Positions 19,581-38,570 are shown, numbered from the stretch's first letter. The stretch: DNA of 64,000 nucleotides from Candidatus Latescibacterota bacterium (GCA_965217585.1 OZ244561.1:5312001-5376000); one strand, 5' to 3'. Made by a program: numbers and translations. The notes: generated by a model from the sequence alone, not told the origin.

Positions 19581-20870
19581 TCAGGCATTAACTCCGTAGA
19601 CCATCGCCGGATTGTCGCGAAAGGTCGCTTGGGCCACGTCGAGCGCTGTCGACTCGGATAGCAAGCCCTCTTCCAGCAGAGCTCCCAGCGCATAGGCGAA
19701 ATTCCGGCGTGCCATCTGCAAGTGTCCGTAGACCGTCTCGACCTGCTGCAAGTCATCCCCAAAGGCGATGATTTTGTTGTAGGGCACCATCTGGAGCCAC
19801 TCTCGCAGATCTAGCCGAGACCCGAAGGGGGAGATTATGTGGATCCAAGACATATTCAGATAGACATTGGCAAAGGTCTTGCCCAACACGGCACCCTCGC
19901 GCAGATAGGGGAAGCCGGCATGGGAGAGGTCAAAGCGGACTTGAGGAAAGGCCTGCAGCAAGGGGATGAGTGGCACTGGACTACACCCTTCCATACCCCC
20001 ATTGTTGCCAGCTCGCATGCCTAGGTGGAACTGGACAGTCAGGTCAGCTTCCGCAGCGGCCTGGCAGCACTCGAAGACTAGGTAGTCCTCCAGCAGTGCA
20101 CCTTCTGCCGAATCAAGCCCAGCGTAGTCGCCCTGCAACAGACGGTCGAAAATAACAGCGGCTTGGCCGGCGTCCCGCTCTTTGAAGTCCATGCGGCGGT
20201 GGTAGGATTGCGACATTTTGACCCCAGCCACCCGGGCTTCCTTCCAGTCTTGGCACACCTGTCGAATTACTGCGACGTGCTGGCGTAGATCGCCGATGGA
20301 CACATCGTAGTCGCGCTCTATCGCGTGGATTTGCTCAGCCGTGCGGAGCATGCTGAAGCGGTTGAGGCGGGGCAGGGGCAGGAATAAGGTCCGGTCCACC
20401 TCAATCAGATCTTCCATATTGACCACTGACATTGCGAGATTGGCCCGCTGCTGCAGCACCGTTTTGTAGAAGCCCGGTTTGCTATGTGCTTGGATGGCCT
20501 CAGAGAGCGGTTCAACCGTGGCAGCCGTCAGATCGTCGAAGCCGAGCAGATCGCGGAAGCCGGTCAAGATGCACTGGGAGTACCCGGTCAGGCGGATCCG
20601 GTTCCAGTACGGCTCGAACAGACACCACCGCTGGTCCAGCGGGCGTCGAGCGTCGAAAAGGGCCTCTTTATTCTCGGGAGAGAGGCCGGCAACCACCAAG
20701 TCGGCGGTTGGATAGGCGTGGTTGAAAAAGGCGAGAGCGTCTATCTCCTGCGCTAGGCGCTCGGCTTCCGGCCCCATGTGGGAGTGGGAGTTGACACACG
20801 GAATTTTTTCAATTTCTGCAAAGAGAGACTCCACCAATCCCAGATCTGGCGCAGAGACGGTACTTCGCAT
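19581..20870 (-). CDS. Amidohydrolase-family metalloenzyme
   Basis: N-terminal NSHSH, QFHLG, LSHAGFPY, FGDD; last gene of the minus-strand barrel operon. Confidence 0.8.
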   Translation of the reverse strand: MRSTVSAPDLGLVESLFAEIEKIPCVNSHSHMGPEAERLAQEIDALAFFNHAYPTADLVVAGLSPENKEALFDARRPLDQRWCLFEPYWNRIRLTGYSQCILTGFRDLLGFDDLTAATVEPLSEAIQAHSKPGFYKTVLQQRANLAMSVVNMEDLIEVDRTLFLPLPRLNRFSMLRTAEQIHAIERDYDVSIGDLRQHVAVIRQVCQDWKEARVAGVKMSQSYHRRMDFKERDAGQAAVIFDRLLQGDYAGLDSAEGALLEDYLVFECCQAAAEADLTVQFHLGMRAGNNGGMEGCSPVPLIPLLQAFPQVRFDLSHAGFPYLREGAVLGKTFANVYLNMSWIHIISPFGSRLDLREWLQMVPYNKIIAFGDDLQQVETVYGHLQMARRNFAYALGALLEEGLLSESTALDVAQATFRDNPAMVYGVNA

Positions 20871-20921
20871 AATAGGTGCTTCCTTCTTTATGGAATCGGG
20901 AGTAGAATCTGCCGCCCGGCA

Positions 20922-23699
20922 TCAATCTTTCAGGCTGGCGTACATCGTCATAAACACGGTACTATCCAGCTGCGACCGGTCATCTCTTTCGACTCGCTCG
21001 CGACTGATTCTACGGATACTGTAGCCGAGTTGGGCCGTAAGCACATAGCCTAGGTACTGCCCCCTGTTCGAAAGTTGCATAGCCAAGACCGTGCTGTTGA
21101 AATCCTCGGTGAATTCACCCGCTGCTAAATCGTCCTCATCAACCACCGAATTCCTGAAGAAGAGTTGTTCTATACCCGTCTCTATGGTCGTTCGCCGCAG
21201 AACGGGGAATTTAAAAGTCAGGAAGAACAAACCAGTCCATTGATCTCGCACAGGGCGCACACCTCCCATAGAATAAGGAGTATTGTCCTTGAGCAATTCG
21301 CTCTTGATCTTCGGTCGCACCGTCAGAGTTTTGTACTGGTACAGATAGTCGGCCTTGTTGATGATCCCGAGGAAACGCGTATCGTCCTTAAAACCTAGAT
21401 TGTTACCTTTCTCCCGCTGCCTCACGGTCTCGTACTTGAATTTATTGGAAAAATTGACCCCGATATTTGTCCGACGGTCCAAACCCAGCCAAAAGGTATT
21501 GATATAGGTATCTTGGGCGAAGAGGGGATCGTCTATTGCTTGGTGCGATCCGGGCAGACCTGGAACTTGTACCCATTGAAAGAGATCGTCCTGAATATTG
21601 TCTTCCGCCTTTTTGATCATGTCGAAGATGCTCACCTGTCCGATCCGGGCGTACTCCTTTTCAAAGCTCACTAGGGCGTACGTGGTCAGATTTTGGCGGT
21701 CGTCCGAAAGGAGCTGTTCGCGGGCCTGCCCGGCGGTGAGTTGCAGGTGCGGAGTTACCTGATTGCGCAGGTACAGGTTGTAGCCCTTGCGATCCCTCTT
21801 GTAAGGATAATCGGGCAGGTTGTCGTTTTCGAACTGGTCGACCCAGCCGTTGTTGTTGAGATCGATACCGAAGAGGTATTCAGGGCGGTCTGAACCATAG
21901 CGCAGGAAGGGTTCCTCGTAGTCAGGGAAGCGGTTCTCACTGAAGATGTTGCTGTTTTGGTTGAAGTCGGAGATGAAATCGTTGTTCTGATCCCAGCCGG
22001 GGAACACCGCCTCGTCGGCGAAACCTTCGGCGGATCTTCCGGTTCTGGTAGCGCGGAATTCCTCTCCGGTCCTAGGATCTTGATAGCGCCGCTTTTGGTC
22101 GGGTTTCTTGTCCTGATCGTCGTTGTCATCGACGAAGTCATAGATGCTCCTGGTCCCGTCTTCGTAATCTATCCGGCCGCTACCGTCCGATATGAAGGGA
22201 CTGGTATTGTAGGCCTCATCCATGTAGAAGCCCTCGACAAAGAGGGACCAAGAGAAGACCGATTTGGACAGATTCATCATCCAGGCTTTGGCGTTTTCGT
22301 CACCGACGAGTCCCGAGTAAGCCCTGTGCGTCTGCACCCGGCGGTTGGGGTATTTTCTGTACTGGTGGTTCACATCGAACTCGGTGTAAAAGTCAAATCC
22401 CAGGAAATCCTGGGCCTCGATCGTGAAGCCCAATAGCTGGTTAGCAGTGGGCAAGCCGTAGTTGAAGACCACTTCGCGCTTATTCGATCCGTCCTGAATA
22501 TTGCCTTCGGCCTGGGCCATCAGCAGAAAGACCGGCTGTCCTTCAAAGTTGGTCTGCTGATCGGAAGTGATCTCGATCCGATAGTCGTTGACTAGGACCA
22601 GTCTGAAGCGGAGATCCCGGATGTTGTTGATGGCATCCTTGTCGTCGAGAATCACGGCTAGGTCGTTCAAGTCGTAACGCAAGGTGATCTGTTCCGTACC
22701 GTTGGCCGTGCGCACGCCTTCTATGATGGTGCCCCCCTGCCTATGGGGTGTGAAGCCGATCTCATTGCCGACTAGCACGGTGTCTCTGTCTCCGATAGCC
22801 GTCGCTATTTCTACATTATCCGCTAGTAGGACGCTCCCCCCGACATCATCGGCCGGTGAGTCGTCGCTCAGCCGGATGACAATAGTACTGATCTGGTTTT
22901 GTAATTGCAGCGAGGTTAATTCCCCTTTGAAGGGATTGCCCTCAAAGCTCTGCACGGTCCCCCGGCCGTTGTGGGAATTGACGAAGACCCCTCCCAAGGT
23001 AATGGCATCACCTAGCCGGACTCTGGTCCGGCCCCCTATCAGGTTGGTGTAGTTGTTGAAAGAGGCCGGATTCGGGTCGGCGATGAAGCCCGGTGCGCTG
23101 ATGCGAGAAAAGATACCAGTTAGCTCGACCACGTCCGACATGAGATCGACTTGGGCACCGTTGTACACAGACTTGCGAAAGGTCATTGGCGTCAGGGTCG
23201 TGACCAGTTCGTCGCCAACGGAAATGGAAAAGGAATATTGACCTTTCTGGTCGGAGGCTACAATCAATGAGCTAAAGAAACCGGCATATGCTCCTCTTTT
23301 CAGCAGACGGCTGCCCTCGGAGATTCTCGGGTGATCCTCGGTCCAGTCGTAGACCAACCATCCTCTGGTCAGGAAATTTCCGTACACATCGTAGAAATAA
23401 TCGCCCCAGAGGCTTTGCGCCACATATCTCTGATAGGGGTTGCCAGCGTAGTTAGTGTACTGCCAAGTCTGCCACTGGTACTCCTGATACAGCTCTTGGG
23501 GCAGATACCGTTTCCGCACCGATGGCTCCACGTTGCCCAGCAGGGTCTTGGGACCCTCAGAGCGATACACCACTGTGCCGTCATTGGCTTGGTGCCCTAA
23601 GCGAGCTCCATAGTTTTGCGCAGCCCATCCAGTAGCGGACGATAAAGCTAGTACGCAGAGTATCCCCACAACATACCACGAGCCGTACCTTTTTAGCAT
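20922..23699 (-). CDS. Large exported protein, putative outer-membrane beta-barrel with Asp/Asn-rich loops (paralogue B)
   Basis: Signal peptide; DDNDDQD, GWDQNNDFISDFN, IDLNNNGWVD motifs; amphipathic strands at the C-terminus ending VFMTMYASLKD. Confidence 0.6.
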   Translation of the reverse strand: MLKRYGSWYVVGILCVLALSSATGWAAQNYGARLGHQANDGTVVYRSEGPKTLLGNVEPSVRKRYLPQELYQEYQWQTWQYTNYAGNPYQRYVAQSLWGDYFYDVYGNFLTRGWLVYDWTEDHPRISEGSRLLKRGAYAGFFSSLIVASDQKGQYSFSISVGDELVTTLTPMTFRKSVYNGAQVDLMSDVVELTGIFSRISAPGFIADPNPASFNNYTNLIGGRTRVRLGDAITLGGVFVNSHNGRGTVQSFEGNPFKGELTSLQLQNQISTIVIRLSDDSPADDVGGSVLLADNVEIATAIGDRDTVLVGNEIGFTPHRQGGTIIEGVRTANGTEQITLRYDLNDLAVILDDKDAINNIRDLRFRLVLVNDYRIEITSDQQTNFEGQPVFLLMAQAEGNIQDGSNKREVVFNYGLPTANQLLGFTIEAQDFLGFDFYTEFDVNHQYRKYPNRRVQTHRAYSGLVGDENAKAWMMNLSKSVFSWSLFVEGFYMDEAYNTSPFISDGSGRIDYEDGTRSIYDFVDDNDDQDKKPDQKRRYQDPRTGEEFRATRTGRSAEGFADEAVFPGWDQNNDFISDFNQNSNIFSENRFPDYEEPFLRYGSDRPEYLFGIDLNNNGWVDQFENDNLPDYPYKRDRKGYNLYLRNQVTPHLQLTAGQAREQLLSDDRQNLTTYALVSFEKEYARIGQVSIFDMIKKAEDNIQDDLFQWVQVPGLPGSHQAIDDPLFAQDTYINTFWLGLDRRTNIGVNFSNKFKYETVRQREKGNNLGFKDDTRFLGIINKADYLYQYKTLTVRPKIKSELLKDNTPYSMGGVRPVRDQWTGLFFLTFKFPVLRRTTIETGIEQLFFRNSVVDEDDLAAGEFTEDFNSTVLAMQLSNRGQYLGYVLTAQLGYSIRRISRERVERDDRSQLDSTVFMTMYASLKD

Positions 23700-23788: not shown

Positions 23789-26575
23789 TTACTGTTCCAC
23801 CCCGGCGTAGATGGTTATGAAGGTAGTGGTGCCAGTCTCGATGGTGGACTTTTTGTCGACCTCCAGATCCATCATCTCGATGGTCTCTAAGGATTTCCTA
23901 GATAGTCGGAACCCTGTCTGTAGCAGTAACACGTACCCTAGGTAATCCGTCGTGGTTGACCACTGAACGGCTAGGTTAGTCTCGTTTAGATCCCCCGTCG
24001 GTCCCACTACGCTCTCCTGGACCAAAGCATCTTCGTCTGCTTTCAATTCTCTTAGCTGCCTGAACTCCGTGCCCATTTCAATCATCGAATACCTCAGCAC
24101 TGGGAATTTGAGGATCACCGACAAGAATCCATCCCATTCCTCGATATCTGCCTCGCGGCGCAAGAATGGTGTGCGCTTCAAGTACTGGCTTTTGAAGCGC
24201 GGCTGAATGCTCAGACCTTCAAATCGGTAGGTATAATCCGCTTTGTTGATAAGCCCGAAAAAGGACGACCTATCGTGGAGCGGACTTCTGTCCAAAGCTC
24301 TGAGATCATCGCTGCGCTGAACGTACAGATCGTATTTGATCGTATTGCGGATGTTCAACTGCGGAATCCGCGTATAGTCGAATCCGATGAACAGGGAATT
24401 CACCCAGGTATCTTGGGCGGGCAGAATATCGGCGACCTTGGCGGGCAGACCCGCCAAGAGAAATCCCTGGGGCGCACGGCGGTCATCGGGGATGGTGTCT
24501 TTGGCTCGTTTTAGCATATCGAACACCCGCAAGCGCCCTAGGCCGGCCCAATTCTCATCCACGGTCACCAGCCCGTAGGTGGTCGTATTCTCTCGCGCGG
24601 AGGAGAGCAGTTCCTCGCGGGTCTGTCCCACGCTCACCCTGACACCCGGGATGACATGAGCGCCGGAATAGGCATTGTAGCCTCTGTGGTCCCTCTTGTA
24701 GGGAAAATCTGGCTCGTCGTCGTTCTCGAAACGGTCAATCCAGTCGTTGTTGTTCAAGTCAATGCCAAAGAGAAATTCCGGCCGGTCGACCTCATACCTG
24801 AGAAAGGGCTCGTCGTAATCGGGGATGCGATTGCTGATTGTCCGATTGTCGTTCTGGTTGAAATCGCTTACGAAGTCGTTGTTTTCGTCCCAGCCGGGGA
24901 AAATGGAAAAATCGGGACCCGGCTGACCGCCTCGCTGCCAATCGGGAGTGCGATCCTGATCGTCGTTGTCTTCGACGAACTCGTAGAAAAACTGGGAAGG
25001 CTGGTCGTAGTTGATATCGCCATTTTGGTTGAGTAGGAAGGAACTAGTGGAGTAGTCGTAGTCCATGGAAAAGGCCTCGCCGAAGAGGAACCAAGGATAA
25101 TCCTGAAAGGAGAGGTTCATCATCCAAGCATCCGCTCGGGTCGAAGCGTCCTCAAAGGAACGGTCGTCGGTAAACAAGGCAAGGTTGGGATACTGCCTGA
25201 ATTTATGGTTGATGTCGTACTCGCCGTAGAAGTTGAAACCTAGGACGTCCTGCGCCTCAATGGTAAAGCCATAAATCTGCGTGGCAGTGGGTAGGCCGTA
25301 GTCGAAAACCAGCCTTCTCCGGTTGGAGCCGTCCTTGGTATTGTCGGGCGCACGGGCGATCTCGAGTAAGACCGGATTCCTCTCGTCGAGGGTCGCTCTG
25401 GTCAGAGGCGCTTCCGGCGGGGTTTCCTGCCCGGTCTGGCGGTCGGACCACACCTCGACTTTGTAGTCGTTGGCCAGTACCAAATCAAAGGTCATTTTTA
25501 CGATCTCAGTCGGGTCGGGACCGATATAGGCCGGATCGTTAAAATCGTAGTTGATGATGATCCGCTGAATGCCGTTGGCCGCCAAGAAACCCTCTTCCCG
25601 AAAACCGCCTTCTATGACTGGCCAGCGCGTTGGATCGTTGGTTAGGTCGGCAAGGCTGAGCGTTTCGCGGATTCCGTTCTGGAAATCTTCGCGCACCACG
25701 ACTAAATCGTGGGAAAAGAGCGCGGTTCCTCCCTCCCCGTCTTCGGGAGAATCATCGCTGAGCACGAGGGCGATAGCGTTGATAGGCACTCTGGCCTGCC
25801 CGTCGCCCAGTGTGCCCTTGGTGGGGTTGCTGTCGAAGGAGCCCAGCGTGGTACGGGTGTTGTGGGCATTGACCCAAGTCGCGCCGACGGTGACGAAATC
25901 GCCCACCTGGGCTAGGGCCCGGCCGCCGATCATATTGGTGGCATTGGTCCGGGTATCGGCACTGGAGACGGACGACCTGACTGGGCTACTAATCCTCGAA
26001 AGGAGGAGCGTGCCAGCGTATTTATCGGCGGCGAAATCTAGCTGAATGCCGTTGAATGCCGGCTTGGAAAAGGTCATGGGGGTGAGCGTGGTGCGTATCT
26101 GATCCCCTGTAGTTATGGAGTAGAGAGCACCGCCTTTTGAATCCGCGGCGATCAACACTTGGTTGAACCAACCCTGATACCTCGAATCTTGGTAGATGGA
26201 ACTGCCCAGAGGGGTCAAGGCTTCCTGACGCCAGTCGTAGATGAGCCATCCCCGGTTGACGAAATTGCCGAACGTGTCGTAGAAATATTCGCCTTCCCGA
26301 GTAGTGTTGACGTAGCGCTCATAGCGATCTCGGGCATAGTTGGAGTATTCCCAAGTCTGGAAGCGGTAATCGTGGTAGAGTTCTTGGGGGACATACCACC
26401 GTTTCACTGTGGGATCAAGGGCATCGAAAAACACCCCTGGTCCCAAGGGTTCAAAGGTGACCTTGCCACCCCTTTGCTGCCCAAGGCGGTTGTTGTAGTC
26501 TTGGGGAAAAGCCGTCGTACTCAAAGCCGCGACTATCCACAGTGCTATCCATACTCTGTAACCTGTATCTACCAT
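23789..26575 (-). CDS. Large exported protein, putative outer-membrane beta-barrel (paralogue A)
   Basis: Colinear with 20922..23699 (PQELY, TTLTPMTF, LSDDSP, YGLPTA, FPGWD, GIDLNNN, INKADY); ends TFITIYAGVEQ. Confidence 0.6.
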   Translation of the reverse strand: MVDTGYRVWIALWIVAALSTTAFPQDYNNRLGQQRGGKVTFEPLGPGVFFDALDPTVKRWYVPQELYHDYRFQTWEYSNYARDRYERYVNTTREGEYFYDTFGNFVNRGWLIYDWRQEALTPLGSSIYQDSRYQGWFNQVLIAADSKGGALYSITTGDQIRTTLTPMTFSKPAFNGIQLDFAADKYAGTLLLSRISSPVRSSVSSADTRTNATNMIGGRALAQVGDFVTVGATWVNAHNTRTTLGSFDSNPTKGTLGDGQARVPINAIALVLSDDSPEDGEGGTALFSHDLVVVREDFQNGIRETLSLADLTNDPTRWPVIEGGFREEGFLAANGIQRIIINYDFNDPAYIGPDPTEIVKMTFDLVLANDYKVEVWSDRQTGQETPPEAPLTRATLDERNPVLLEIARAPDNTKDGSNRRRLVFDYGLPTATQIYGFTIEAQDVLGFNFYGEYDINHKFRQYPNLALFTDDRSFEDASTRADAWMMNLSFQDYPWFLFGEAFSMDYDYSTSSFLLNQNGDINYDQPSQFFYEFVEDNDDQDRTPDWQRGGQPGPDFSIFPGWDENNDFVSDFNQNDNRTISNRIPDYDEPFLRYEVDRPEFLFGIDLNNNDWIDRFENDDEPDFPYKRDHRGYNAYSGAHVIPGVRVSVGQTREELLSSARENTTTYGLVTVDENWAGLGRLRVFDMLKRAKDTIPDDRRAPQGFLLAGLPAKVADILPAQDTWVNSLFIGFDYTRIPQLNIRNTIKYDLYVQRSDDLRALDRSPLHDRSSFFGLINKADYTYRFEGLSIQPRFKSQYLKRTPFLRREADIEEWDGFLSVILKFPVLRYSMIEMGTEFRQLRELKADEDALVQESVVGPTGDLNETNLAVQWSTTTDYLGYVLLLQTGFRLSRKSLETIEMMDLEVDKKSTIETGTTTFITIYAGVEQ

Positions 26576-26634: not shown

Positions 26635-28839
26635 TCAATAGGCCACGCCTATGAGGCCGCTCGCCTCGGCCTTGCCGCCGTCGGTGTCCAAATCAATGTT
26701 GAAAATGTAGAGGCCCGGCGGCACGGTGTTCCCTTGGCCATCGGTACCGTCCCACGTCCTAGTAAAACGACCACTCTGGTCAATCCCGCGATAGACTTCC
26801 CGCACCATGCTGCCGGACAAGTCGTATATCCGCAGCGCTACGCCGGCCCCGCTGATGAGATCGGTGATATCAAAATGTATCTGCGCAATATCGTTGATCT
26901 GATCCCCATTGGGCGTAAAGACTGCTGGTACGGCGTTGACGTTGATCAGCAAGTCCCCTTTTTTCGCCACTTGCACCACCAGATTTCCCGGGTCGCGAAT
27001 GAGAGTGGCATTGGAACTTTCTTGGCTCAAGTAAAAGACATTGCCTCCCACTACCCGTTGTGGAACTTCGCCGGGGGTTTCGGACAGGGCTAGGGGGGAA
27101 AAGGCGGTTCCAGTCCGCAGCACTACGCATTGGAAAACCACTTCCAAGACGGTCATCTGTCCCACTTCTATGCGACTATTCTCTACTTTGGGGAAACTAA
27201 TCTGGAAGCGATCTTCCTCGACCAAATCAATGCGGAAATCCCCGCGTTCCACCGGCAGGTCACTCAGGTCCGAATCCGAGAAATCTTGTTCGAGGCGGGA
27301 TCCATCCGGTAGCGACATGCCAATCCGATCTACTGCGTCCACTTTTACGGGTGTGCTGATTTCGAGGGAACTGAAGCCCTGATCGATTTCGGGCCGCATA
27401 TCGGGAATGAGTGCCAAGGAAAAAGCTGTTTTTTGCCCCAGATCCGCTTGGCGTGGGGTGATCTCTCCCACGATCTCTGCGGCCAGTACCGGCCTGGAAA
27501 AATCGAGGGACAGTGAACCGATGCCTTTGGCCGAAAAGAGATCTTCACTCAAATAATCCACTTTGAACTGAAAGTAACGCCCTGGACCGGGCGAAACGAT
27601 GGGCACTCCGCCCATCCCTGCGGATACTTCATCGGCGCTAGTTATACCCGTAGCCGCATAGGGCGGCGACCAGGCGCTCCAGTTTTCCAAGTCGTCCCGC
27701 ACCGAGCCCTTGTTGCCCGACCTCAGTTTATTGTACTCGGCTTGGGTCAGCGATATCTCATTCCTCCTATCGAGAGGAAGATCTTTGTACAATAGCCGAG
27801 CCCGCTTTATATCGAAATCGGGCGCGTCGAGTTGACTGACGATTTCCCACGCTTGGCTGCCTTCGTCGAATTCATCGGCCGTCTTCCAAGCCACTTCGGC
27901 CCCGTCGAGGTCGCTGCGGAGGCGATTGAACACGACTGGAGAATCATCAAAGCCGCTCCTAGTGCTGATGGGCACTTGGGAGCGGATCGGGTCGCCTTGG
28001 CTTTCTTCCTCCCAGCGCAGATTTCCCCAAAGGGCCAAATTTTCTCCCAGATCGAATATATCCGAATGATACTCCGCCGTGGGCACGAAACCCTCTCCGA
28101 AGACTTGGAACTCTCCTATTTCAAAGCCCACTGTGGTCTGGGATTTTAGCTGGAGATAGCGCACGTACTGGGGCTCTATCTGCACATCTACTACCGGTTG
28201 GTCGTTCTGCAGTACGAGCAGAACGCTGGTGAATACCGGCAGGCCGGCGGCTAGTGTTTCTCGCGTGCCGTCGTTGAGAAAAATCTCATAGGCCCTCATA
28301 TAATCGTCTTGAAAGGGAAAATCAGGAGCGAGAAAATCTGGAGCGGCGTTCCTGGGGAAGAAGCGGATGCGACTCACGCCAAATCGCGCTCCTAGGTCGA
28401 ACTGGAGGACCACGCCCAGCGCCCGGACATTCTGACCAGGAGCGCTTTTCCTTTCAAAGGCCGAGCTGGCATTATTGTCTATCATTTTTAACAGGTCTGT
28501 CGCTAGATCTCTGAGAACAGTGGGCGCGGTTACAGATCCACCTCGGTCTAGCAGTTGTAAGGCGATGTTGTCAGTTTGGTCGGCCTTTTCGGGAAAAATC
28601 CATCCCTCCCGCGCAGAAAAGTCGATAACCCCCCCAGGTACGTTTTCGTTTGTCACCTCCTGGGGCCCTAAGATGATCACCGGATCTAATCCTCCTCCTC
28701 CTTCTTGCCAAGGTCGGCCTTCCTCGCCGCCGAGAATGATCAACTCCTTGGTGGCTCCTGTACCCACAGACCCGTAGACGGAGAGCAAGACCCCTATAAT
28801 CAGATATGAGCGTAAATTCGAACTAAAGTCCGCTTGCAT
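26635..28839 (-). CDS. Secreted discoidin-like protein with TPNGD/FlgD-Ig C-terminal domain
   Basis: DLGARFGVSRIRFFPR, VFGEGFV, WGNLRW, SPGPGRYFQ, FTPNGDQIND, WDGTDGQGNTVPPGLY, ends VAY. Confidence 0.8.
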   Translation of the reverse strand: MQADFSSNLRSYLIIGVLLSVYGSVGTGATKELIILGGEEGRPWQEGGGGLDPVIILGPQEVTNENVPGGVIDFSAREGWIFPEKADQTDNIALQLLDRGGSVTAPTVLRDLATDLLKMIDNNASSAFERKSAPGQNVRALGVVLQFDLGARFGVSRIRFFPRNAAPDFLAPDFPFQDDYMRAYEIFLNDGTRETLAAGLPVFTSVLLVLQNDQPVVDVQIEPQYVRYLQLKSQTTVGFEIGEFQVFGEGFVPTAEYHSDIFDLGENLALWGNLRWEEESQGDPIRSQVPISTRSGFDDSPVVFNRLRSDLDGAEVAWKTADEFDEGSQAWEIVSQLDAPDFDIKRARLLYKDLPLDRRNEISLTQAEYNKLRSGNKGSVRDDLENWSAWSPPYAATGITSADEVSAGMGGVPIVSPGPGRYFQFKVDYLSEDLFSAKGIGSLSLDFSRPVLAAEIVGEITPRQADLGQKTAFSLALIPDMRPEIDQGFSSLEISTPVKVDAVDRIGMSLPDGSRLEQDFSDSDLSDLPVERGDFRIDLVEEDRFQISFPKVENSRIEVGQMTVLEVVFQCVVLRTGTAFSPLALSETPGEVPQRVVGGNVFYLSQESSNATLIRDPGNLVVQVAKKGDLLINVNAVPAVFTPNGDQINDIAQIHFDITDLISGAGVALRIYDLSGSMVREVYRGIDQSGRFTRTWDGTDGQGNTVPPGLYIFNIDLDTDGGKAEASGLIGVAY

Positions 28840-30785: not shown

Positions 30786-30823
30786 GTACCTCGCAAATCT
30801 CGGACGCCGGTCTTACGCATCCC

Positions 30824-33394
30824 TCAGTACGCTACATGGACCACCCGCTGCACAAAAGTATTATCGGCCGAGCCAGAATCCACATCCACCTTTACCCTCG
30901 CCAAGTATATCCCCGGAGGAACTGGCTCGCCCAAATGATCCTTGCCATCCCACCGAAAGACATAATTGCCGCGAGGATCTGGACGGCGTTCCTCTATCCG
31001 GTTGGTCTCAAACCCACTCAGGTCGTAAACGGTCAGAGTCACCGGTCTCTCAGCACCCACCCGCGCTACGCCGAAGCTGAATACCAGCTCATCGTTGACG
31101 CCGTCCCCATTGGGCGTGAATACTCGCGACCCCAGTCTGAAATCCCTAATAATTTCGGTCCCCCTGAGAGCTAGGACGGTGACGGTCTGGCTGCTGACCA
31201 GTTCCGTGGGATCGCCCTCGTCAACTCGCTGCCAGAATCCAGGTACGGCGGAATTCTGTACCAGGGCTCCAAAGGAGGCACTATTGCCGAATATGGTGGC
31301 GCGAAACCGGATCTGAACTAGTTCCGTTCCGCCGCCAATTTTCTCGTCTAAGCGGAACCTGATGGAGCCGGCTGGCGCATCGGTCAGAGTCAGATCCGCC
31401 GGTGCGTAGTTAGTGGTTTGTCCGCTCTCGAAATTATCCTTGCTTCCCGTCCGCACTTCGAGCAACTCCATTGCAGTACCCGCCGTGGCTTCTAAGGTGA
31501 TCTCGTCGAAACCTTGATCTGTCGCAGTGAAATCGGGCCGGATGAAGTAAGAGAATTCCTCAGGGGTGCCCACGGTCTCAATTCGGGTGGGCCATACTTC
31601 TCCCACCAGCCGATCAGCAACTGGATCTGAGGTGTTGATGGCAATGGAGCGGAGGGTGGCACCCGCGTCCGACCTATCCGTGAGCAATATGAGCCGAATT
31701 TCCATAAACTGTCTGGGACTGGGGGATTTGATCGCTTCCCCGGACCGAGTGTACGGCACACTCCACGTGCTCCAGTCGTCGCCCGGTTTGAATGTGCTGG
31801 TGATATCGCCCTTTTTGGACTTAGGCAGCTTTTTGTAGCGCTTCTCGGTGACGACCTTGCCCTTGGAATCGTGGAAGATCTTCTCTTCTATCAACTCATT
31901 GCCCGTCCGGGTCTGCAGCTGGACCTGGGTCCCAGTCGGCGTATCCGCCTCCCACTCGACGGAAATCAGGTTCTTAGGTTCGTTAAATTGAATTAGATCC
32001 GAGGTCAGCGATACTTCCGCCACAAAGCCCTCCCCGTAGAGCATCACCTCCGTAAAAGCTATGTAGCTGAGCGAACTCAGTGGGTTCTGGAACGGAGAGC
32101 GAATAAAGCGGATCTTGATGGGCTCAATCTGGATTTCGCGAAATCGCAAGCCGCGGGAAGAGGTATGGCCAAAAGCGTCCCTAGCGGTACTTTGACCCAC
32201 CCGAGTCCACTTGATGCTGCCGTCGGGTGCCCGGGTACCATCGGAGGTATCGACGTAAAGTTCGTTGATCGCTGAGGCTCCGTCGGTGAGAAAGTGCATG
32301 GTGTCGACCCAGAATAGAGCCCCCAGATCCTCGAAGTAATTATAGTCGCGATAGCCGAAAATGGACCCATTGGCACCCGTGCTGTAGTTGCCGTCGGTAA
32401 CTGCTGCCCCAATGTCCTTAACGCCACCATTGTGCTCGATTGTCACCTGTCCTCCCCGCTCCACCACGCCGATGTTGATATTGTCTCCCTCCGTCACGAC
32501 CTCTACCTCGGCGATCTTGGGAATTTCCCTCCGGTAGTAGCGGATCGGGCCCCGGCGTTCGGGATTAATGCTGTCGTATTCCTCTTGTGAAATTAGAGTT
32601 TCTCGGCCGGACCGCTCTTTCCGGTAGAATTCGATAGCGCCTTGCTGGTCTGTCGGCAGATTCTCGTACTCCTGTTCGGTCAATTCCTCAGCCTTGGTCG
32701 AATCACTATTAATGGCAATTATTAGAATGCGCTCGAGCGGATCGCCCCTGAAGAGCAGATCCGATCCTTCGGTCGGACGGGGTTCAAATTCGAATACGCG
32801 CTGTGTCTTGTTGGGTTTATCGGTCCTGCCGATCTCCCAGAAGTTGGGGACGTTGGTCTTGGGCTCGTCGAGATAATAGCCCGAAACCGAGCGCGGTGGG
32901 GGTTGCCGCCAGCCCAGCACCTTGAACTGCAGGAAGGGATCTCCCTCGCCTTCTTGGGCAAAGCGCACGACTATTTTCTTGACGACCACTATGCGGCCAA
33001 GATTCACCTCTGCCCACCAGTCTTCCAGAGGGCTTTCGGGATTGGGGCCCCACATGGTCTGCAGGTCGCCATCTATCAGGTTGTTCACCGTATTGGTGCC
33101 GGAGCCTGCTATCACCCCTCCCTCGCCGGTAGTGGAAAATTGCGTCGCGTTCTGAGCTGCGTTGACCTCTTTCCGTATAAAGGAGGGCTGCACTGTATTG
33201 TCGGCCGTGGAAATATCCAGAACACTCGAAGCCCCTTTCCACGCCTGCCAGTGAGCTGCTCGGTCAATAAGGACTTGATTGCCGCGAATAGCGTGGCCCT
33301 GTTGCGACCAGGCTTGGAGGGGAAAGATCAGCAGTGTACCGATCCACACCAAGCTGGAGATGCCCCGCCGATAAGAAATCGAGTCAACTACCAT
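30824..33394 (-). CDS. Secreted protein with two discoidin-like domains and TPNGD/FlgD-Ig C-terminal domain
   Basis: Signal peptide; LIDGDLQTMW..VNLGR and VTDGNYST..DLG repeats; YGEGFV, SPSPRQF, GEVWP, FTPNGDGVND, ends VAY. Confidence 0.8.
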   Translation of the reverse strand: MVVDSISYRRGISSLVWIGTLLIFPLQAWSQQGHAIRGNQVLIDRAAHWQAWKGASSVLDISTADNTVQPSFIRKEVNAAQNATQFSTTGEGGVIAGSGTNTVNNLIDGDLQTMWGPNPESPLEDWWAEVNLGRIVVVKKIVVRFAQEGEGDPFLQFKVLGWRQPPPRSVSGYYLDEPKTNVPNFWEIGRTDKPNKTQRVFEFEPRPTEGSDLLFRGDPLERILIIAINSDSTKAEELTEQEYENLPTDQQGAIEFYRKERSGRETLISQEEYDSINPERRGPIRYYRREIPKIAEVEVVTEGDNINIGVVERGGQVTIEHNGGVKDIGAAVTDGNYSTGANGSIFGYRDYNYFEDLGALFWVDTMHFLTDGASAINELYVDTSDGTRAPDGSIKWTRVGQSTARDAFGHTSSRGLRFREIQIEPIKIRFIRSPFQNPLSSLSYIAFTEVMLYGEGFVAEVSLTSDLIQFNEPKNLISVEWEADTPTGTQVQLQTRTGNELIEEKIFHDSKGKVVTEKRYKKLPKSKKGDITSTFKPGDDWSTWSVPYTRSGEAIKSPSPRQFMEIRLILLTDRSDAGATLRSIAINTSDPVADRLVGEVWPTRIETVGTPEEFSYFIRPDFTATDQGFDEITLEATAGTAMELLEVRTGSKDNFESGQTTNYAPADLTLTDAPAGSIRFRLDEKIGGGTELVQIRFRATIFGNSASFGALVQNSAVPGFWQRVDEGDPTELVSSQTVTVLALRGTEIIRDFRLGSRVFTPNGDGVNDELVFSFGVARVGAERPVTLTVYDLSGFETNRIEERRPDPRGNYVFRWDGKDHLGEPVPPGIYLARVKVDVDSGSADNTFVQRVVHVAY

Positions 33395-33453
33395 GATGGC
33401 TCCTCCAGAATGTGAATTTGTCGCGTGGTTAAACAGCTTTTAGATAGATAAAC

Positions 33454-33487
33454 ACAAAGAGGGGATATCGAAATATCCCCTCTTTGT
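33454..33487 (-). terminator. Hairpin terminator with UUCG loop
   Basis: Perfect 15-bp stem ACAAAGAGGGGATAT / ATATCCCCTCTTTGT with TTCG loop on the minus strand, 16 bp after the stop of 33504..34433. Confidence 0.85.
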
Positions 33488-33503
33488 ATTTGAAAGACTG
33501 GAA

Positions 33504-34433
33504 TTATTCTTCCAGCAGATAGTGGGACTTGATTCTGCCCCACGAGTCGTTTTCTACAGCGGTGGGGAACAGCTCTTCATCGACCTCCAGCAACTCCATG
33601 TCGCCCATGAGATTGCCATTGCGCCAGACGTTGTGAACAGCCGGAAAATCGTAGGAGCCCTCGTAGCTGGAGTCCAAGTCGTAGTCTTTAGACAGGGAGC
33701 CGACGTGGATGATATTGCCTACTTCCAAGTCGAAGATTGTGCTTTGCTCAGGACCATCCCAACTCCAAGTTTCCCACGGGGTCATCATGATCTCGTAGGA
33801 ATAAGTACCCGGACCACCAGTCTCGCCGGTGCGGGACCAGCCCACTTGGGCGTACTCGGGGAAGGGGATCTCGCGGCCAGTGGTCTCCCAGTCGGTCGCC
33901 TCGATGTACTTGAAGGCCCAGTACCCATCGATGGGCGGCACGTGGATCTGCCACAGTTGACCCGTGACGAAAAACAAATCCCGGCGCTCGTCCTCGGACA
34001 AATCGTTCCAATCGTTGTTAAACATATCGCCACCGCTGTGATCGGCGTCGAGCACGAAGTGCCAGTCGTCATCCCAGTTGAAGACGGTGGGGTCGTCGCG
34101 GTCGTTGTTGAGATTATCGTCAACCACAAAGGCAAAGGAGAAAACCCGGTTCATTTCCTCGTTCCAGGCCCATGCGCTCCTAGCGTTGAAATCCGACAGC
34201 TCGCCGCTGTCAGTCCCGCGCACGGTCTCTTGGATATGGCCTCCTTCCACCGAGATCTCGAAGATATCTGGATCTACCATGTCCCAATCGCTTAGATCGC
34301 CGTCGATGGCGGGCACGGCGTGAAGGGGGAACTGAAAGGCGAAGTAAACCTCGCCAGGCGGTTCGTGAGCCGAGCCGATACTAGCGCAGGCGACCACGAG
34401 CGCTAAAGCCAGAAAGCAACGAATCAGTTTCAT
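33504..34433 (-). CDS. Secreted CBM9/DOMON-like protein with C-terminal TAVENDSWGRIKS motif
   Basis: Signal peptide ending GSA-H, PAIDGDLSDW, LDADHSGG; RBS AGGAGGT; paralogue of 2221..3147. Confidence 0.75.
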   Translation of the reverse strand: MKLIRCFLALALVVACASIGSAHEPPGEVYFAFQFPLHAVPAIDGDLSDWDMVDPDIFEISVEGGHIQETVRGTDSGELSDFNARSAWAWNEEMNRVFSFAFVVDDNLNNDRDDPTVFNWDDDWHFVLDADHSGGDMFNNDWNDLSEDERRDLFFVTGQLWQIHVPPIDGYWAFKYIEATDWETTGREIPFPEYAQVGWSRTGETGGPGTYSYEIMMTPWETWSWDGPEQSTIFDLEVGNIIHVGSLSKDYDLDSSYEGSYDFPAVHNVWRNGNLMGDMELLEVDEELFPTAVENDSWGRIKSHYLLEE

Positions 34434-34622
34434 TACTTTAACCTCCTGTTAGGTATTGGATTGAAAAGCCGATTCATCTGTCTGCTCAATTCTGCATATA
34501 CAGTGCCGAGTTACCAGGCTATGAGACCTCCTTTCGCCTGACTGTTTAAACGTTCTTTATTCCTGCTACGGACACTTAGTTTGGTAATATACGAGCAAAA
34601 AGTCTAAGTACATAGAAAAATT

Positions 34623-36794
34623 TCAACCCTCTCCCTCCAACTGCTGTATTCGGCCCGCCGATGGATGATTGGGTGCCAACTCTACCCCCTTCTGCCAGTA
34701 CGCACGGGCCTGCTGACGTCGTTCCAAGCGCCACAAGGCCCGGCCTAGATTGAAGTAGGCCGGGGCAAAATCCGGGTGCAACGCGACCAGCTCTTCCCAA
34801 GTTTCCACGGCTTTTTCCAGATCTCCCAAGGAGGCGTACGCCACTCCGAGTTCGTTGTACGCCTCTTGGTACGCTGGCTTCAGAGCTATAGCCTGCTCCA
34901 AAAAGCGCACGACCTGCTCTAGCTGGCCCAATTGAGCATAGGTCCGCCCCATTTGGGTGTAGAGATAGCGTCCCACTTCTAGGCCGACCAATTCTTCGGG
35001 CGCTGGCGCAATTTCCAAGGCCCGGTGGTACGCCTGCAAGGCGCCCGCCCAATCTTTTTCGGCCCTAGCTTGGTGACCGCGCAAAACCCAGTGCAGTGCC
35101 TCAAAGTAGGAACGGGCCTCTATCCGCACCGAAGTTCCGTTCACAGAGAGCGTGTCTAGCCGGACGACAGGTCCCGTCTTTTCTACTTGGTCAAATCCCG
35201 CAATCGGCAAAAAGTACCAGTCCATTCGGTCGAAAACAGCCGCTTCCACCCGGCCTGGTGAAAAGACTTCCCGCCATTGGCCTGTCCCTAGGAGGGACTG
35301 GAAATCGGGTGGTATCTCCTCGTCGGAGCACACAGGATGCTGATAGTGGACGATCACGACTGGGGCACTAGCGCTGTCCTGGGACGTCGACTTTACCTTC
35401 TCCACCTTCGTCTCCAGGTACAGGGGCGGCAGATCGTCGCGCCGGGCCAGTAGCGCGTACGCCCGCAGCAACGCTTCGCTGCCGTAGCTCTGCAGGTAAT
35501 GGGTCTGCCGCACCTGCAAGCGCTCGGGTGTCAGCACCTGGATCTGGCCGCACTTTGAGGGCAATTGGATCAGGCGCTGGTACTGGGGAAGGTGGGTCTG
35601 GAGCCAAGCCTGAGCCTCTATGCGGGTGTCTTGGCCGCTGAGTAGAGATCTAGTGCGGAGCGAGGCGTACAGGGGCTCGGCCACCAAGGTCAGGGTGACC
35701 AAGCCACCCACCAGAGGGTACTTACATCCCATCCCGACCAAACGTCCGATGAGCAAGGCTAGCAAGGGCGCAAGGGGTAGGGCATAGCGCATAAAAGTGG
35801 AGCCAGCAAGAGCGAGAACTGCGGCCAAGGGAATGATGCCAGCCAGCAAGACAAGTTCCTGCCATTGCCTCTGGCGAATGCCCCAGAGCAGGGACAGGGC
35901 TACGGCCACGGCAGCCACCGCGCCCAGACCGTGGCGCAAAGTATAGCGCAGGTGGTAGAGCCAAGCCTGTTCCTCTGCACCCGGCTCCGCCAGCAGATGG
36001 GTCCGTCCCATATCGGCGAAATGGTCCCAAAACTGCCCGGCATCGAGCCAGACAAAGGGTGTGGCTAAGGCAAAACTCAACGCAGCCCCACTGCCGACCC
36101 AGATGATGCGCCTGCGTGGCCAAGGTCTATTCAGCAAAATCGCCGTGGCTACTGGTATCGCCACTAGAACCGCCGGGTACTTGGTCGCCCCGGCCAAGCC
36201 AGTGAAAATACCCGCCGCCAGAAAATCCCACACGTGCCCCTCCTGTCGGGCCCGCACGGCCCACAACAGGGCCATTACCGCCCAGAAAACAGCCGGCGTA
36301 TCCACGATGGCCAAATGGGCAAAACGCACGGCCAGCGGCATGGTCGCCAAGATCAGGGCGGCCAAGAGTCCTTCTCTGACGCCGTAGAGGCGTCGGCCTA
36401 GACAGGCGACAGCCCCTACTGTGGCAACGGACAGCAGGGTGTTGACCCCACGCACTAGCGCTAGCAAATCGCGGCCGTCCACCAGCAAGTGATAGGCGAC
36501 AAACTGCTCCACTGATTCGGCGCTTGTCACCAGATAGTAGAGCAGGTATAAAAATGAACTAAGGTAGAAGTGAAAGGTTGGGTAGTTAAAGTAGTGGGGA
36601 TTGAGATCGCCGCTCCAGAAACCCAGCGGCAGGACTATGAAGGCGATCTCGTCGAAGTGGGTCCAGGCTGGTATGGGCACTGGCCAGCGCAGCGCCAGCG
36701 TTAGCACCAAGATAGCGCCCGTACCCCATCTGAAGGGAATGCGCCCTGTGTTCTTCTCTGACATTTGGCGCCTTTCCCGCCTAGGCTGGCTCAA
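34623..36794 (-). CDS. GT39/ArnT-like glycosyltransferase with C-terminal TPRs
   Basis: HFDE, DLNPHYFNYP, GLAGATKYP, multiple TMs, TPRs at the C-terminus. Start may be 36764. Confidence 0.8.
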   Translation of the reverse strand: MSQPRRERRQMSEKNTGRIPFRWGTGAILVLTLALRWPVPIPAWTHFDEIAFIVLPLGFWSGDLNPHYFNYPTFHFYLSSFLYLLYYLVTSAESVEQFVAYHLLVDGRDLLALVRGVNTLLSVATVGAVACLGRRLYGVREGLLAALILATMPLAVRFAHLAIVDTPAVFWAVMALLWAVRARQEGHVWDFLAAGIFTGLAGATKYPAVLVAIPVATAILLNRPWPRRRIIWVGSGAALSFALATPFVWLDAGQFWDHFADMGRTHLLAEPGAEEQAWLYHLRYTLRHGLGAVAAVAVALSLLWGIRQRQWQELVLLAGIIPLAAVLALAGSTFMRYALPLAPLLALLIGRLVGMGCKYPLVGGLVTLTLVAEPLYASLRTRSLLSGQDTRIEAQAWLQTHLPQYQRLIQLPSKCGQIQVLTPERLQVRQTHYLQSYGSEALLRAYALLARRDDLPPLYLETKVEKVKSTSQDSASAPVVIVHYQHPVCSDEEIPPDFQSLLGTGQWREVFSPGRVEAAVFDRMDWYFLPIAGFDQVEKTGPVVRLDTLSVNGTSVRIEARSYFEALHWVLRGHQARAEKDWAGALQAYHRALEIAPAPEELVGLEVGRYLYTQMGRTYAQLGQLEQVVRFLEQAIALKPAYQEAYNELGVAYASLGDLEKAVETWEELVALHPDFAPAYFNLGRALWRLERRQQARAYWQKGVELAPNHPSAGRIQQLEGEG

Positions 36795-36821
36795 TTACCG
36801 CCCGTCGGCGAGAATTCCGCG

Positions 36822-38570
36822 CTAGCCGCCGGTGAGAACGCGTTTTAGGTTGTCCTCCCTGACCTCGACCTGCGCCGCGTACTTAGCCCGTAGTTCGGCC
36901 AAGAATTGCTCGAATACCTGCTGCTTCTTGATCCAGTTGACTGTGGCCCGCACCCGCTTTTTGGCTTCTTCAAAGGAGGCGCGCTGCCGCTCGCGGGACA
37001 ACACCTTGAAAATGGAGTACCCCTCGCGCACCTGCAGCGGCCCGGTCAACTCGCCCACGGGGGCTTTGCGGGCCGCCGCCACCAAGCGTCCGTACACCGC
37101 TGCGGCCGCAACCGTAAAACGCCGTCGGCCCTCCTCGTCCCGCAGCTCTGGAGCGCGTTTGGAGTATTGGCGTGCCAAGTCGCTCATGGGCGCACCCAGC
37201 CGGAGGCGTTCGAGCAAGTCCTTGGCTTCCGCTTCGGTAGCGACGAGGATTTCCTGAATCTCGATTTGGGCGGGCTGCATGTAGCGGTCGGGATTTTCTT
37301 TGTATTCCCGGCGGATATCCTCTGCGGAAATGCTTAGGCGCTCCTTCAACACCTGGACGCGCAACTGCACGACCAATTCCTGTTCTCGTTTCCTCGCCAG
37401 CCATTGCGTCACTTCCTCTTCCTGATCTAGGCCCTCCCTCAGGGCGGCCTCGACAAAGAGCGCATCGGGCACCAAGGTGCCTTCGGCGTACTCGATGACT
37501 GCCTCTTTGCTGCGCAAGTCCAGCGTTTTGTATTTGAATTGACTGGCGGCATCGAGTACATCTCCGGCCGTGATCTTTCCTCCTTCATAGCGGTAGAGAA
37601 CAATAGCCCGCACTTCCTCATTTCCGGAGGTGGCTCCCCTGTGCATTGCCGCCGAGAAGGCATCCAACCCCCGCTGATCCCTTTCGAGTTTGAGGGCTTC
37701 TTTGAGGCTGTCGGTCAGGGCAGCCCTCGCCTCGACGCTGCGCTCGATGAAGAGTTGGCGGTAAATATTTTGGAATTGCTCGGCGTCTAGCCCGGTTTCG
37801 ATTGACTCCAAGGCTTTGAAAAGGGCGAAATGACCACCTATGTCTATGGGCTGGCTTACTTCTCCTTTTTCAAGTGCGAAGAGGGGCAGGCGCAGATAGG
37901 GCGGCATATCCAGCTTGCCGACAAACCGACCGGTGTCTCCTCCTTGCTCCATTGTTGGTTCGTGGATGGACCACTGCTCAGCTACTTCTCCGAAATCTCG
38001 CCCCGAGGAGATCTCGCGCAGTGCGGACCAAGCGCTGTCTTCGCTGGTGGTGATGAGTTGGGCAAAGCGGACCTTGCGCGCCAATTCCCGTTCCCGAAAG
38101 TAATCGCTGACCTCCTGTCCTGAGACTCGCACCTTGATCTTTTTGATCTGGTAGAGGCCAATGAGCTTTTCCTTCCTGTACTGGGCTATCTTATAAATGA
38201 AGGCTGGCAGGCGATCTATCCCTTGCTCCTTGGCCTCCAACTGCAGCAGCTCCATATCGATGAGCGTCTGCAAATGGTTGCGCTCCTTCTCCAATCCTTC
38301 ACTGTCGCTCTGGAGGTAATTGGGAATTTTGCCGTAGAACTTCCGCAGTTGGCCAGCAGTGATGGATCGATCTCCCACCCGGGCCAGTTCCAGTTTCCAC
38401 TGGGCCGTCGAGTCCGGAGTGGTGACGAGCTCTGCCTGCGGCTGGAGGGCTTCTTCCTCCTGATTGGCACAGCCAGTTCCCAAAATGGCTAATAGCACCA
38501 CCCCGATTCTCCATCTTGTCGCGACGGGTACAAGACGTATTATTGCCTTGGGGCTTAGGTATTTCATCAT
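36822..38570 (-). CDS. Parvulin-type peptidyl-prolyl isomerase lipoprotein (PrsA/SurA-like, two rotamase domains)
   Basis: Lipobox GTGC; FGEVAEQWS..GGDTG..GEVSQPI and IQEILVATEAEA..LARQYS..GELTGP..GYSIFKV. Confidence 0.85.
   Translation of the reverse strand: MMKYLSPKAIIRLVPVATRWRIGVVLLAILGTGCANQEEEALQPQAELVTTPDSTAQWKLELARVGDRSITAGQLRKFYGKIPNYLQSDSEGLEKERNHLQTLIDMELLQLEAKEQGIDRLPAFIYKIAQYRKEKLIGLYQIKKIKVRVSGQEVSDYFRERELARKVRFAQLITTSEDSAWSALREISSGRDFGEVAEQWSIHEPTMEQGGDTGRFVGKLDMPPYLRLPLFALEKGEVSQPIDIGGHFALFKALESIETGLDAEQFQNIYRQLFIERSVEARAALTDSLKEALKLERDQRGLDAFSAAMHRGATSGNEEVRAIVLYRYEGGKITAGDVLDAASQFKYKTLDLRSKEAVIEYAEGTLVPDALFVEAALREGLDQEEEVTQWLARKREQELVVQLRVQVLKERLSISAEDIRREYKENPDRYMQPAQIEIQEILVATEAEAKDLLERLRLGAPMSDLARQYSKRAPELRDEEGRRRFTVAAAAVYGRLVAAARKAPVGELTGPLQVREGYSIFKVLSRERQRASFEEAKKRVRATVNWIKKQQVFEQFLAELRAKYAAQVEVREDNLKRVLTGG

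Follow-up and report, generated by a model that had tools for sequence, protein, structure and literature searches.

Gene content of the module and the window

We studied a run of genes in a 64,000-nt stretch of DNA from Candidatus Latescibacterota bacterium (GCA_965217585.1, OZ244561.1:5312001-5376000), referred to as a whole as the window. The run, hereafter the module, occupies positions 19581-38570 on the minus strand and consists of nine genes in one orientation with small intergenic gaps. The first encodes a 582-aa peptidyl-prolyl isomerase (PPIase) of the parvulin type (36822-38570), matching the Pfam families Rotamase_2 and Rotamase. The second (34623-36794) encodes a 723-aa membrane glycosyltransferase of the GT39 type with a C-terminal TPR region (GT39-TPR), matching PMT_2, PMT (26.2 bits) and TPR families. 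The third (33504-34433) encodes SWG1, a 309-aa SWGRIK (SWG) protein with a CBM9 fold by model, and a stem-loop lies 3' of its stop codon (33450-33491). Three genes for proteins with FlgD-Ig-type C-terminal domains, here called tail proteins, follow: type 1 (856 aa, 30824-33394), type 2 (634 aa, 28881-30785) and type 3, or tail3 (734 aa, 26635-28839). The next two encode large paralogous proteins, barrel A (928 aa, 23789-26575) and barrel B (925 aa, 20922-23699), and the run ends with a 429-aa Amidohydrolase-2-like protein (19581-20870; Amidohydro_2, 35 bits).

The module runs convergent with a tandem pair of plus-strand DUF6785/DUF6784 genes (15573-17603, 676 aa, and 17616-19571, 651 aa; Pfam scores of 453 and 266 bits). 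Gene calls and Pfam matches thus agree with an initial annotation, made by a model from the sequence alone, which had described a co-oriented run from PPIase to amidohydrolase converging on a DUF6785 pair. At the other end, a second GT39-TPR gene (38580-40724, plus strand, 714 aa, PMT_2 and TPR families) is divergent from the PPIase gene and lies between it and three tandem type-2 tail genes on the minus strand (40782-46747; 627, 645 and 628 aa; FlgD_ig and CHU_C matches). With these genes upstream of the PPIase gene, the module reaches at least position 46747. Identities of 71-78%, both within the triplet and to the type-2 gene at 28881-30785, mark these genes as a recent local expansion of that type.

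The start of a second module copy, recognised from Pfam matches and from the paralogy of its SWG and tail genes, lies at 1-5206 on the minus strand. Here a DUF6785 gene (3266-5206) is followed 118 bp downstream by the gene for SWG2 (2221-3147) and then by a FlgD-tail gene (1-2164) that runs past the window edge, so the second SWGRIK instance that had been placed downstream of a DUF6785 gene at 3147-1 is real. In total the window holds seven FlgD-tail genes, three GT39-TPR genes, two SWG genes, two barrel genes and six DUF6785 genes. SusC/SusD, TonB-dependent receptor and ABC families were all absent from a Pfam scan of the 37 window open reading frames (ORFs), as had been noted for SusC/SusD, TonB and ABC genes.

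Conservation across other genomes

A scan for the barrel in species-representative genomes gave at least 636 confirmed loci. We fetched and analysed the best 80, which come from 45 assemblies with no more than five loci per assembly, and searched their ORFs with the window proteins. The same families occur together in these 80 loci, which makes the run more than a chance grouping; they do co-localise in other genomes, as the proposal in the initial annotation requires. Linkage was counted at the 60 loci with full 10-kb flanks. Tail genes were present at all 60, with at least two at 57; PPIase was found at 52, SWG at 51, two barrels at 45, GT39-TPR at 41 and DUF6785 at 29. The constant core is thus one or two barrels, the three tail types, the CBM9-fold protein and the parvulin chaperone, often with GT39-TPR. 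By contrast, the amidohydrolase was found at only 4 of 60 loci and a sulfatase at 3. The amidohydrolase had been counted as part of the system but is a local neighbour, not a core part.

Across the 80 loci the core genes take 53 distinct orders, so that they have stayed linked through many rearrangements. A tail3-type gene lay directly upstream of an A-type barrel gene in 66 of 67 cases, adjacent barrels were ordered A then B in all 51 pairs, and the gene next after SWG was a tail gene 48 times out of 61. The B barrels form what a FastTree tree of 142 barrels indicates is a coherent lineage: placing the label 'second of pair' on it takes 3 changes, compared with a mean of 42.4 for shuffled labels.

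Other genes also recur beside the module. At about 20 loci, including L011, L038, L041 and L048, the module contains or adjoins genes for FG-GAP/ASPIC-UnbV proteins (26 ORFs in one family) and for pentapeptide-repeat proteins (nine ORFs), possible accessory parts that the window lacks. PhyH dioxygenases are another recurrent flank neighbour, and the remaining flank genes are heterogeneous. Loci with barrels 53-97% identical to the window barrel (L001, L013, L022, L030 and others) carry record titles of Gemmatimonadetes/Gemmatimonadota, one Myxococcales and one Handelsmanbacteria as well as Latescibacterota. Record titles alone are an unsafe guide to the taxonomic range of the barrel family.

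The large paired proteins model as outer-membrane barrels

Barrels A and B are 42% identical end to end and neither matches any Pfam or NCBIfam family, even at E 10. Barrel A has at least 1099 homologues of near-constant length (~930 aa), mostly in Latescibacterota records, and all those with names are called 'hypothetical'. A profile search of 1.84 billion representatives returned at least 959 clusters (50% identity) at E <= 0.001.

An AlphaFold2 model of barrel A was built from a 33-sequence alignment and reached a mean pLDDT of 68, with values of 75-91 along the barrel strands. The protein begins with a signal peptide and a conserved N-terminal region of ~125 aa. Long antiparallel strands are modelled at residues 150-504 and 630-925, and about 24 barrel strands were counted from the strand list. 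Long loops and turns of only two to three residues follow one another in alternation, which on the rule commonly applied to such proteins would place two long stretches outside the membrane: a beta-sandwich insert at ~298-427 and an Asp/Asn-rich stretch at ~505-629, in which 37% of residues are D, E or N. The ~925-aa proteins thus model as outer-membrane beta-barrels of an unnamed family.

Foldseek matched barrel A to LptD, Deinococcus SlpA, MtrB, the FimD usher, TonB-dependent receptors and porins, with E values from 1e-7 to 1e-3. We inspected 38 matches at E <= 0.001 and all were outer-membrane barrels, bar one low-probability row. The initial annotation had described the twin proteins as barrel-like, and both the model and these matches speak for a barrel rather than a soluble protein. 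TM-scores to solved barrels were nevertheless low (0.17-0.27), and searching PDB sequences with the barrel profile gave only chance-level rows and no related chain. Together with the absence of Pfam and NCBIfam matches, this leaves the family unmatched to any characterised system. LptD, MtrB, SlpA and FimD, the best structural matches (E 1e-7 to 2e-4), are of similar barrel size (~24 strands). They differ in having no sequence relation to the module barrels among PDB chains, and the module barrels contain no OstA, SLH, usher or plug family whilst having their own conserved N-terminal region and Asp/Asn-rich loop. In the ESM Atlas, the barrel and tail3 each fall in their own unnamed cluster; among named clusters the nearest to the barrel is DUF6029 (0.89), no more than a lead.

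Tail proteins share a FlgD-Ig/CHU_C-like C-terminal domain

The tail proteins are of three conserved types, all with a hydrophobic N-terminus, and FlgD_ig and CHU_C match their last ~90 residues. We take all three types to be beta-rich proteins exported by Sec, each with a lectin-like head. Type 1 consists of a signal peptide, a discoidin-like head, a beta-rich middle and a FlgD-Ig/CHU_C-like C-terminal domain ending in VAY, as does the same domain in type 2. FlgD_ig scores are 27.8 bits for type 1, 28.8 for type 2 and 36.1 for tail3, the last above its cut-off. We therefore found FlgD-Ig tails in all three of the proteins described earlier as discoidin/FlgD-Ig, but the discoidin part of that description held only for type 1 and only below the cut-off (F5_F8_type_C, 26.3 against 28.2 bits). 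Discoidin matches also occur in some tail relatives, among them 3 of 38 relatives of the tail3 type. All 38 match both CHU_C and FlgD_ig (PF13585 at E <= 0.01). The C-terminal domain was recognised in 181 of the 194 tail ORFs at the fetched loci, with V/L/I-A/V-Y as the final residues of almost all.

CHU_C (PF13585) is the type-B sorting domain of type IX secretion, a link absent from the initial annotation. Its cut-off of 27 bits was reached by tail3 (38.2) and by the genes at 42816-44753 (27.4) and 44861-46747 (28.6). It was missed by type 1 (23.8), type 2 (22.7) and the genes at 40782-42665 (21.1) and 1-2164 (21.9). Some tail relatives are named by NCBI as 'T9SS type B sorting domain-containing' or 'gliding motility-associated C-terminal domain-containing protein'. 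The domain also weakly matches the PorU C-terminal domain, and a search of PDB sequences with the tail proteins found FlgD only.

The closest known parallel concerns proteins with a C-terminal domain (CTD) of type B in the system for type IX secretion (T9SS). In the passages of PMC9143113 that treat them, such proteins bind PorP-like barrels, as in the pairs SprB-SprF and PG1035-PorP, and sprB adjoins sprF. As far as those passages go, the module resembles this arrangement in its C-terminal beta-sandwich matching CHU_C, in a cargo gene beside an outer-membrane barrel gene (tail3 before barrel A) and in several cargo-barrel sets per genome. It differs in its ~925-aa barrel of an unnamed family, usually present as an A and B pair, in having its own parvulin, GT39-TPR and CBM9-fold protein, and in missing the TIGR04131 cut-off. 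No PorP/SprF-family barrel was found beside the tail genes; the barrels that do neighbour them lack any Pfam or NCBIfam match at E 10. PorP/SprF barrels are about one third the size of the window barrels.

The tails might alternatively be plain T9SS cargo, that is, type-B CTD adhesins such as those used in gliding, with the T9SS encoded elsewhere, the barrels serving as PorP-like anchors or being unrelated porins, and no uptake taking place. The CHU_C and FlgD_ig matches throughout the tail3-type proteins, the PorU match, the names of some relatives and the sprB-sprF-like gene neighbourhood all fit this idea, and Latescibacterota are placed in the FCB superphylum in the part of PMC4454575 that bears on it. 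We nonetheless regard it as quite unlikely. No T9SS core gene (SprA/Sov, PorV, PorU or GldK-N) was found in Pfam scans of the window and locus flanks, whole genomes not being scanned. A general secretion tag is expected on varied cargo, whereas the 120 closest relatives of the tail C-terminal domain are all tail-family proteins and none has an enzyme domain; only one other protein type seen in the fetched loci, a DUF3179 protein, carries it. The size of the barrels and their lack of a Pfam family also argue against PorP-like anchors, and a literature search found no link between Latescibacteria and T9SS.

The DUF3179 protein (L006:3673-5169; 261 bits) has a FlgD_ig-type C-terminal domain and is the sole non-tail carrier in the fetched loci. 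This hints that these bacteria may use the domain more widely as a sorting tag. A complex prediction for barrel A (residues 26-928) with the C-terminal domain of tail3 (residues 640-734) gave no answer, scoring 0.00 twice in runs made without controls, and counts neither way.

CBM9 fold and conserved C-terminal motif of the SWG protein

SWG1 has a signal peptide and a domain of CBM9 fold, and the conserved motif TAVExxSWGxIKxxF stands at the C-terminus of the protein, which ends in ...TAVENDSWGRIKSHYLLEE. SWG2 (308 aa) is 29% identical to SWG1 and ends in ...TAVEDDSWGRIKSRFK, with the C-terminal motif DSWGRIKS common to both. Neither protein has a Pfam match, PF06452 (CBM9) included, even at E 10, and neither matches NCBIfam. 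PF06452 was however found in two distant SWG relatives (P0196 and P0203), and the SWG family profile matches CBM9-2 of Thermotoga maritima (1i82) at E 2.7e-4 over the IDG..W and D..D.DH stretches. The SWG1 model (pLDDT 88) matches 1i82 in Foldseek at E 1.4e-11 with a target-normalised TM-score of 0.78, and 7nwn at E 1.3e-10 with a TM-score of 0.77. Heme-binding DOMON-like subunits (2ivf_C and 7b04) are matched more weakly, at E 1e-4 to 3e-4. Judged from its model, SWG1 looks like a CBM9 beta-sandwich and is a predicted carbohydrate binder; the label 'CBM9-like' in the initial annotation was well chosen. SWG proteins share fold and profile matches with CBM9-2 of Xyn10A and the DOMON-like fold. 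They differ in standing alone rather than forming a module of an enzyme, in being ~100 aa larger, and in having an invariant His at the predicted mature N-terminus and a conserved C-terminal helix motif.

Six residues are invariant among 45 aligned SWG proteins: H23, D44, D105, H132, E214 and D278. In all 45, H23 comes straight after a small-x-small signal-peptidase site, which makes it the predicted N-terminal residue of the mature protein. This N-terminal His could be a metal or heme ligand. H132 lies in the motif DADHSGG. A histidine-brace or copper site formed by H23 and H132 was considered and dropped, as H132 aligns with a His of ordinary CBM9-2.

Nearly every SWG protein carries TAVExxSWGxIKxxF, and the model shows this motif as a helix. 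A search through the ORFs of all 80 loci found it in 55 of 61 labelled SWG members, in three unlabelled SWG-like ORFs and in one 460-aa ORF of locus L053; a loose pattern picked up two further short ORFs, probably by chance. The motif is thus confined to the SWG family within these loci. The L053 ORF (L053:14257-15636), with ...SWGQLKNSVLRTK as its C-terminal end, lies between a PPIase gene and a second barrel gene. It may encode a divergent protein of the SWG type in a 'barrel-PPIase-barrel' arrangement, whose loci otherwise seemed to have no SWG gene.

The stem-loop after SWG1 has a 19-bp stem and a folding energy of -33.3 kcal/mol (z -5.25), and 0 of 200 shuffled sequences folded as well. 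It is followed by a U-rich stretch, is unique within the window and is terminator- or attenuator-like; a simple terminator scan missed it and folding revealed it. The initial annotation held that an order of SWGRIK gene, hairpin and FlgD-tail gene recurs in the window. The gene order does recur, but the spacer after SWG2 does not fold significantly (z -0.99, with 33 of 200 shuffles folding as well).

We also folded the 70 nt 3' of the stop codon for every core gene of the loci. SWG genes had the lowest median minimum free energy (-28.9 kcal/mol, n = 57), with 63% at or below -25 kcal/mol. Medians were -20.7 for barrels (n = 138, 26% at or below -25), -18.9 for PPIase (n = 54, 17%), -17.2 for tails (n = 182, 13%) and -12.5 for GT39-TPR (n = 54, 0%). 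Strong structure 3' of SWG genes is thus a family trait. The stems vary in sequence across divergent loci, and U-runs follow several of them. These features suggest either a stabilised SWG transcript or partial termination of transcription at the hairpin, and in either case SWG protein would be made in excess of the downstream products.

An abundant SWG subunit would also suit an S-layer-like coat or a fibre, in which the barrels would provide a platform of the SlpA or usher type and the tails would serve as adhesins or minor subunits, with the PPIase as periplasmic chaperone and GT39-TPR glycosylating the coat. Chaperone-usher operons occur as many paralogous sets per genome and resemble the module in this. 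The conserved hairpin after the SWG gene, as the first gene, is reminiscent of major pilin genes, the module has a chaperone and glycosyltransferase of its own, and Foldseek matched barrel A to Deinococcus SlpA (E 2.7e-7 to 5.5e-7) and to FimD (E 2.2e-4). The FimD match is however a generic barrel match (TM-score 0.20), and scores to all solved barrels are similarly low. Matches to SlpA_C (PF21620) were seen in 4 of 14 divergent barrel relatives, but at 16.7-19.8 bits against a cut-off of 35, and in neither window barrel. Pfam and NCBIfam searches found no SLH domain, usher family or PapD-like chaperone, and SWG is a complete CBM9 fold with no sign of donor-strand exchange. A coat or fibre is thus the least probable of the explanations weighed here.

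The PPIase and GT39-TPR partners

The PPIase consists of a SurA-N-like region (a weak SurA_N_3 match) and two rotamase domains, with PF13145 (83.1 bits) and PF00639 (63.8 bits) each above cut-off over two stretches. It reached no NCBIfam equivalog cut-off and is therefore not an orthologue of SurA, PpiD or PrsA, although it is probably a periplasmic chaperone of SurA/PpiD-like kind. Directly after its hydrophobic N-terminus (…AILGTGC) lies Cys34, followed by a low-complexity linker. From the position of this Cys the protein may be a lipoprotein chaperone rather than a soluble one like SurA.

The three GT39-TPR genes of the window score 59.4 (34623-36794), 32.4 (38580-40724) and 27.1 bits against PF13231 (PMT_2), for which the cut-off is 26.1, and their products have five to eight hydrophobic segments, with eight in the protein of the module. 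A search of PDB sequences with GT39-TPR returned TPR proteins only.

DUF6785 proteins are frequent partners

All six DUF6785 genes of the window match both PF20581 (266-454 bits) and PF20580 (73-104 bits) above cut-off, and their products have 10-13 hydrophobic segments. They have no relative among PDB sequences, and a literature search on DUF6785, DUF6784, PF20581 and PF20580 found no paper. The 60 full-flank loci hold 25 full-length copies at 22 loci, 9 of them within 300 bp and 20 within 2 kb of a core gene. This corresponds to 7.8 full-length copies per 100 kb of flank, a density that cannot plausibly hold genome-wide, and DUF6785 is therefore enriched beside the module. It is a frequent but facultative partner. 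Within the window the six genes lie at 3266-5206, 10061-12064, 15573-19571 and 48677-52705, with two tandem pairs amongst them. Their neighbours are a GMC oxidoreductase, a sulfatase, two PhyH dioxygenases, a DUF3604 protein and several membrane proteins without a family match.

Such surroundings recall the polysaccharide utilisation loci (PULs) of Bacteroidota, and the initial annotation had proposed an analogous utilisation locus. If so, the barrels would import, the tails and SWG would bind substrate, DUF6785 proteins would carry it across the inner membrane, and the amidohydrolase, sulfatase, PhyH and GMC oxidoreductase enzymes nearby would process what is taken up. Like SusC/SusD PULs, the module occurs as multi-copy loci, several divergent copies per genome, and combines an outer-membrane barrel with carbohydrate-binding surface proteins, having CBM-type folds among its parts and variable enzymes and inner-membrane proteins nearby. 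The polytopic DUF6785 proteins, most copies of which lie within 2 kb of a core gene, and the catabolic enzymes in many flanks are also in keeping with it. Unlike those loci, however, the module has no TonB-dependent receptor, plug domain, SusD family, TonB or ABC part among the window ORFs. Its binders are not lipoproteins and end in an Ig-like domain, and its constant partners are a chaperone and a glycosyltransferase, which are not PUL features. The low counts for amidohydrolase and sulfatase, and flank enzymes that are heterogeneous and mixed with unrelated housekeeping genes, also count against it, and DUF6785 has neither a function known from the literature search nor a PDB relative. A PUL-type locus is thus possible, but we doubt it. 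Capture, as one half of the utilisation idea, fits the CBM9 fold and the DUF6785 enrichment; for uptake, the other half, no plug, TonB box or energy-coupling part was found.

A possible surface capture complex

Building on the parts of the module, their folds, conserved linkage and multiplicity, we read the locus as one instance of an envelope module that occurs in multiple copies across Latescibacterota. It would encode a barrel-anchored, glycosylated, lectin-like surface complex that captures carbohydrate-bearing material. We give this reading a probability of roughly 40%, and infer its surface location, anchoring, glycosylation, ligand class and any transport. The constant chaperone and glycosyltransferase partners point to assembly of a surface structure. 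The parvulin chaperone would escort the barrels and tail proteins across the periplasm, and the GT39-TPR enzyme would glycosylate them. Each tail protein would then be retained on the cell surface through its C-terminal domain, bound to a barrel of its own, a step modelled on the Bacteroidota type-B CTD proteins held by neighbouring PorP/SprF-like barrels. Together with the CBM9-fold protein, which is probably made in excess, the tails would form a carbohydrate-binding capture complex above a wide pore. From there, what is captured may cross the barrel and reach DUF6785 proteins of the inner membrane, a route of uptake that is plausible.

Several results weigh against this capture complex. The best 80 of at least 636 loci include orthologous loci of close relatives, so the linkage counts are not independent events and overstate their number. 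About half of the loci have no DUF6785 gene, neighbouring enzymes differ between loci, and no plug, TonB box or other energy-coupling part for import was found. The barrels are unlike PorP/SprF in size and family, the curated CHU_C cut-off is reached by only 3 of the 7 window tail proteins, and the NCBIfam cut-off for TIGR04131 is never reached by the tails (25.4 at best against 35). The barrel A model is only moderately confident, and its most conserved stretches (21-149 and 534-618) are the worst modelled, with pLDDT below 50. The N-terminal stretch is aromatic-rich and the other contains DDNDDQD, WDxNNDFxSDFNQN and DLNNNxWxDxFExD. These stretches may fold only with calcium or with a partner.

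A bolder variant makes the A and B barrel pair a new translocon and anchor in one, exporting and displaying the three CTD-tagged lectin-like proteins without a type IX system. The parvulin would deliver them, GT39-TPR would glycosylate them, and the abundant CBM9-fold protein would dock by its SWGxIK helix, with the whole doubling as a nutrient-capture device. We consider this unlikely, though if the barrels themselves do export and hold the tails they would represent a new outer-membrane assembly route.

Contact with the surroundings is known from gene lists alone in Latescibacterota, a widespread and uncultured phylum. The module is among the most repeated features of their genomes, and if it is truly a capture complex it would be their counterpart to SusCD loci and would explain how they harvest polymers. 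It offers as targets the two barrel paralogues, the CBM9-fold protein with its invariant N-terminal His and C-terminal docking motif, and the DUF6785 membrane family. Our literature search found no description of the module, the barrel family or DUF6785, and nothing relevant for Latescibacteria in combination with FlgD, CBM9, discoidin or a gliding C-terminal domain. In its relevant passages, a Latescibacterota paper (PMC4454575) describes non-specific porins and inner-membrane transporters and no such module. The part types (outer-membrane barrel, CTD-type Ig domain, CBM9, parvulin and GT39) are known, whilst the barrel family, the SWG family with its terminal motifs and the combination of genes are undescribed.

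One further window gene lies between the tail triplet and a DUF6785 pair (47151-48548). Its 465-aa product carries a signal of the lipoprotein type (…LSGC) and, close to the N-terminus, a CxxCH heme-binding motif; fatty-acid cis/trans isomerase is the only Pfam family that it matches, and the match is weak.

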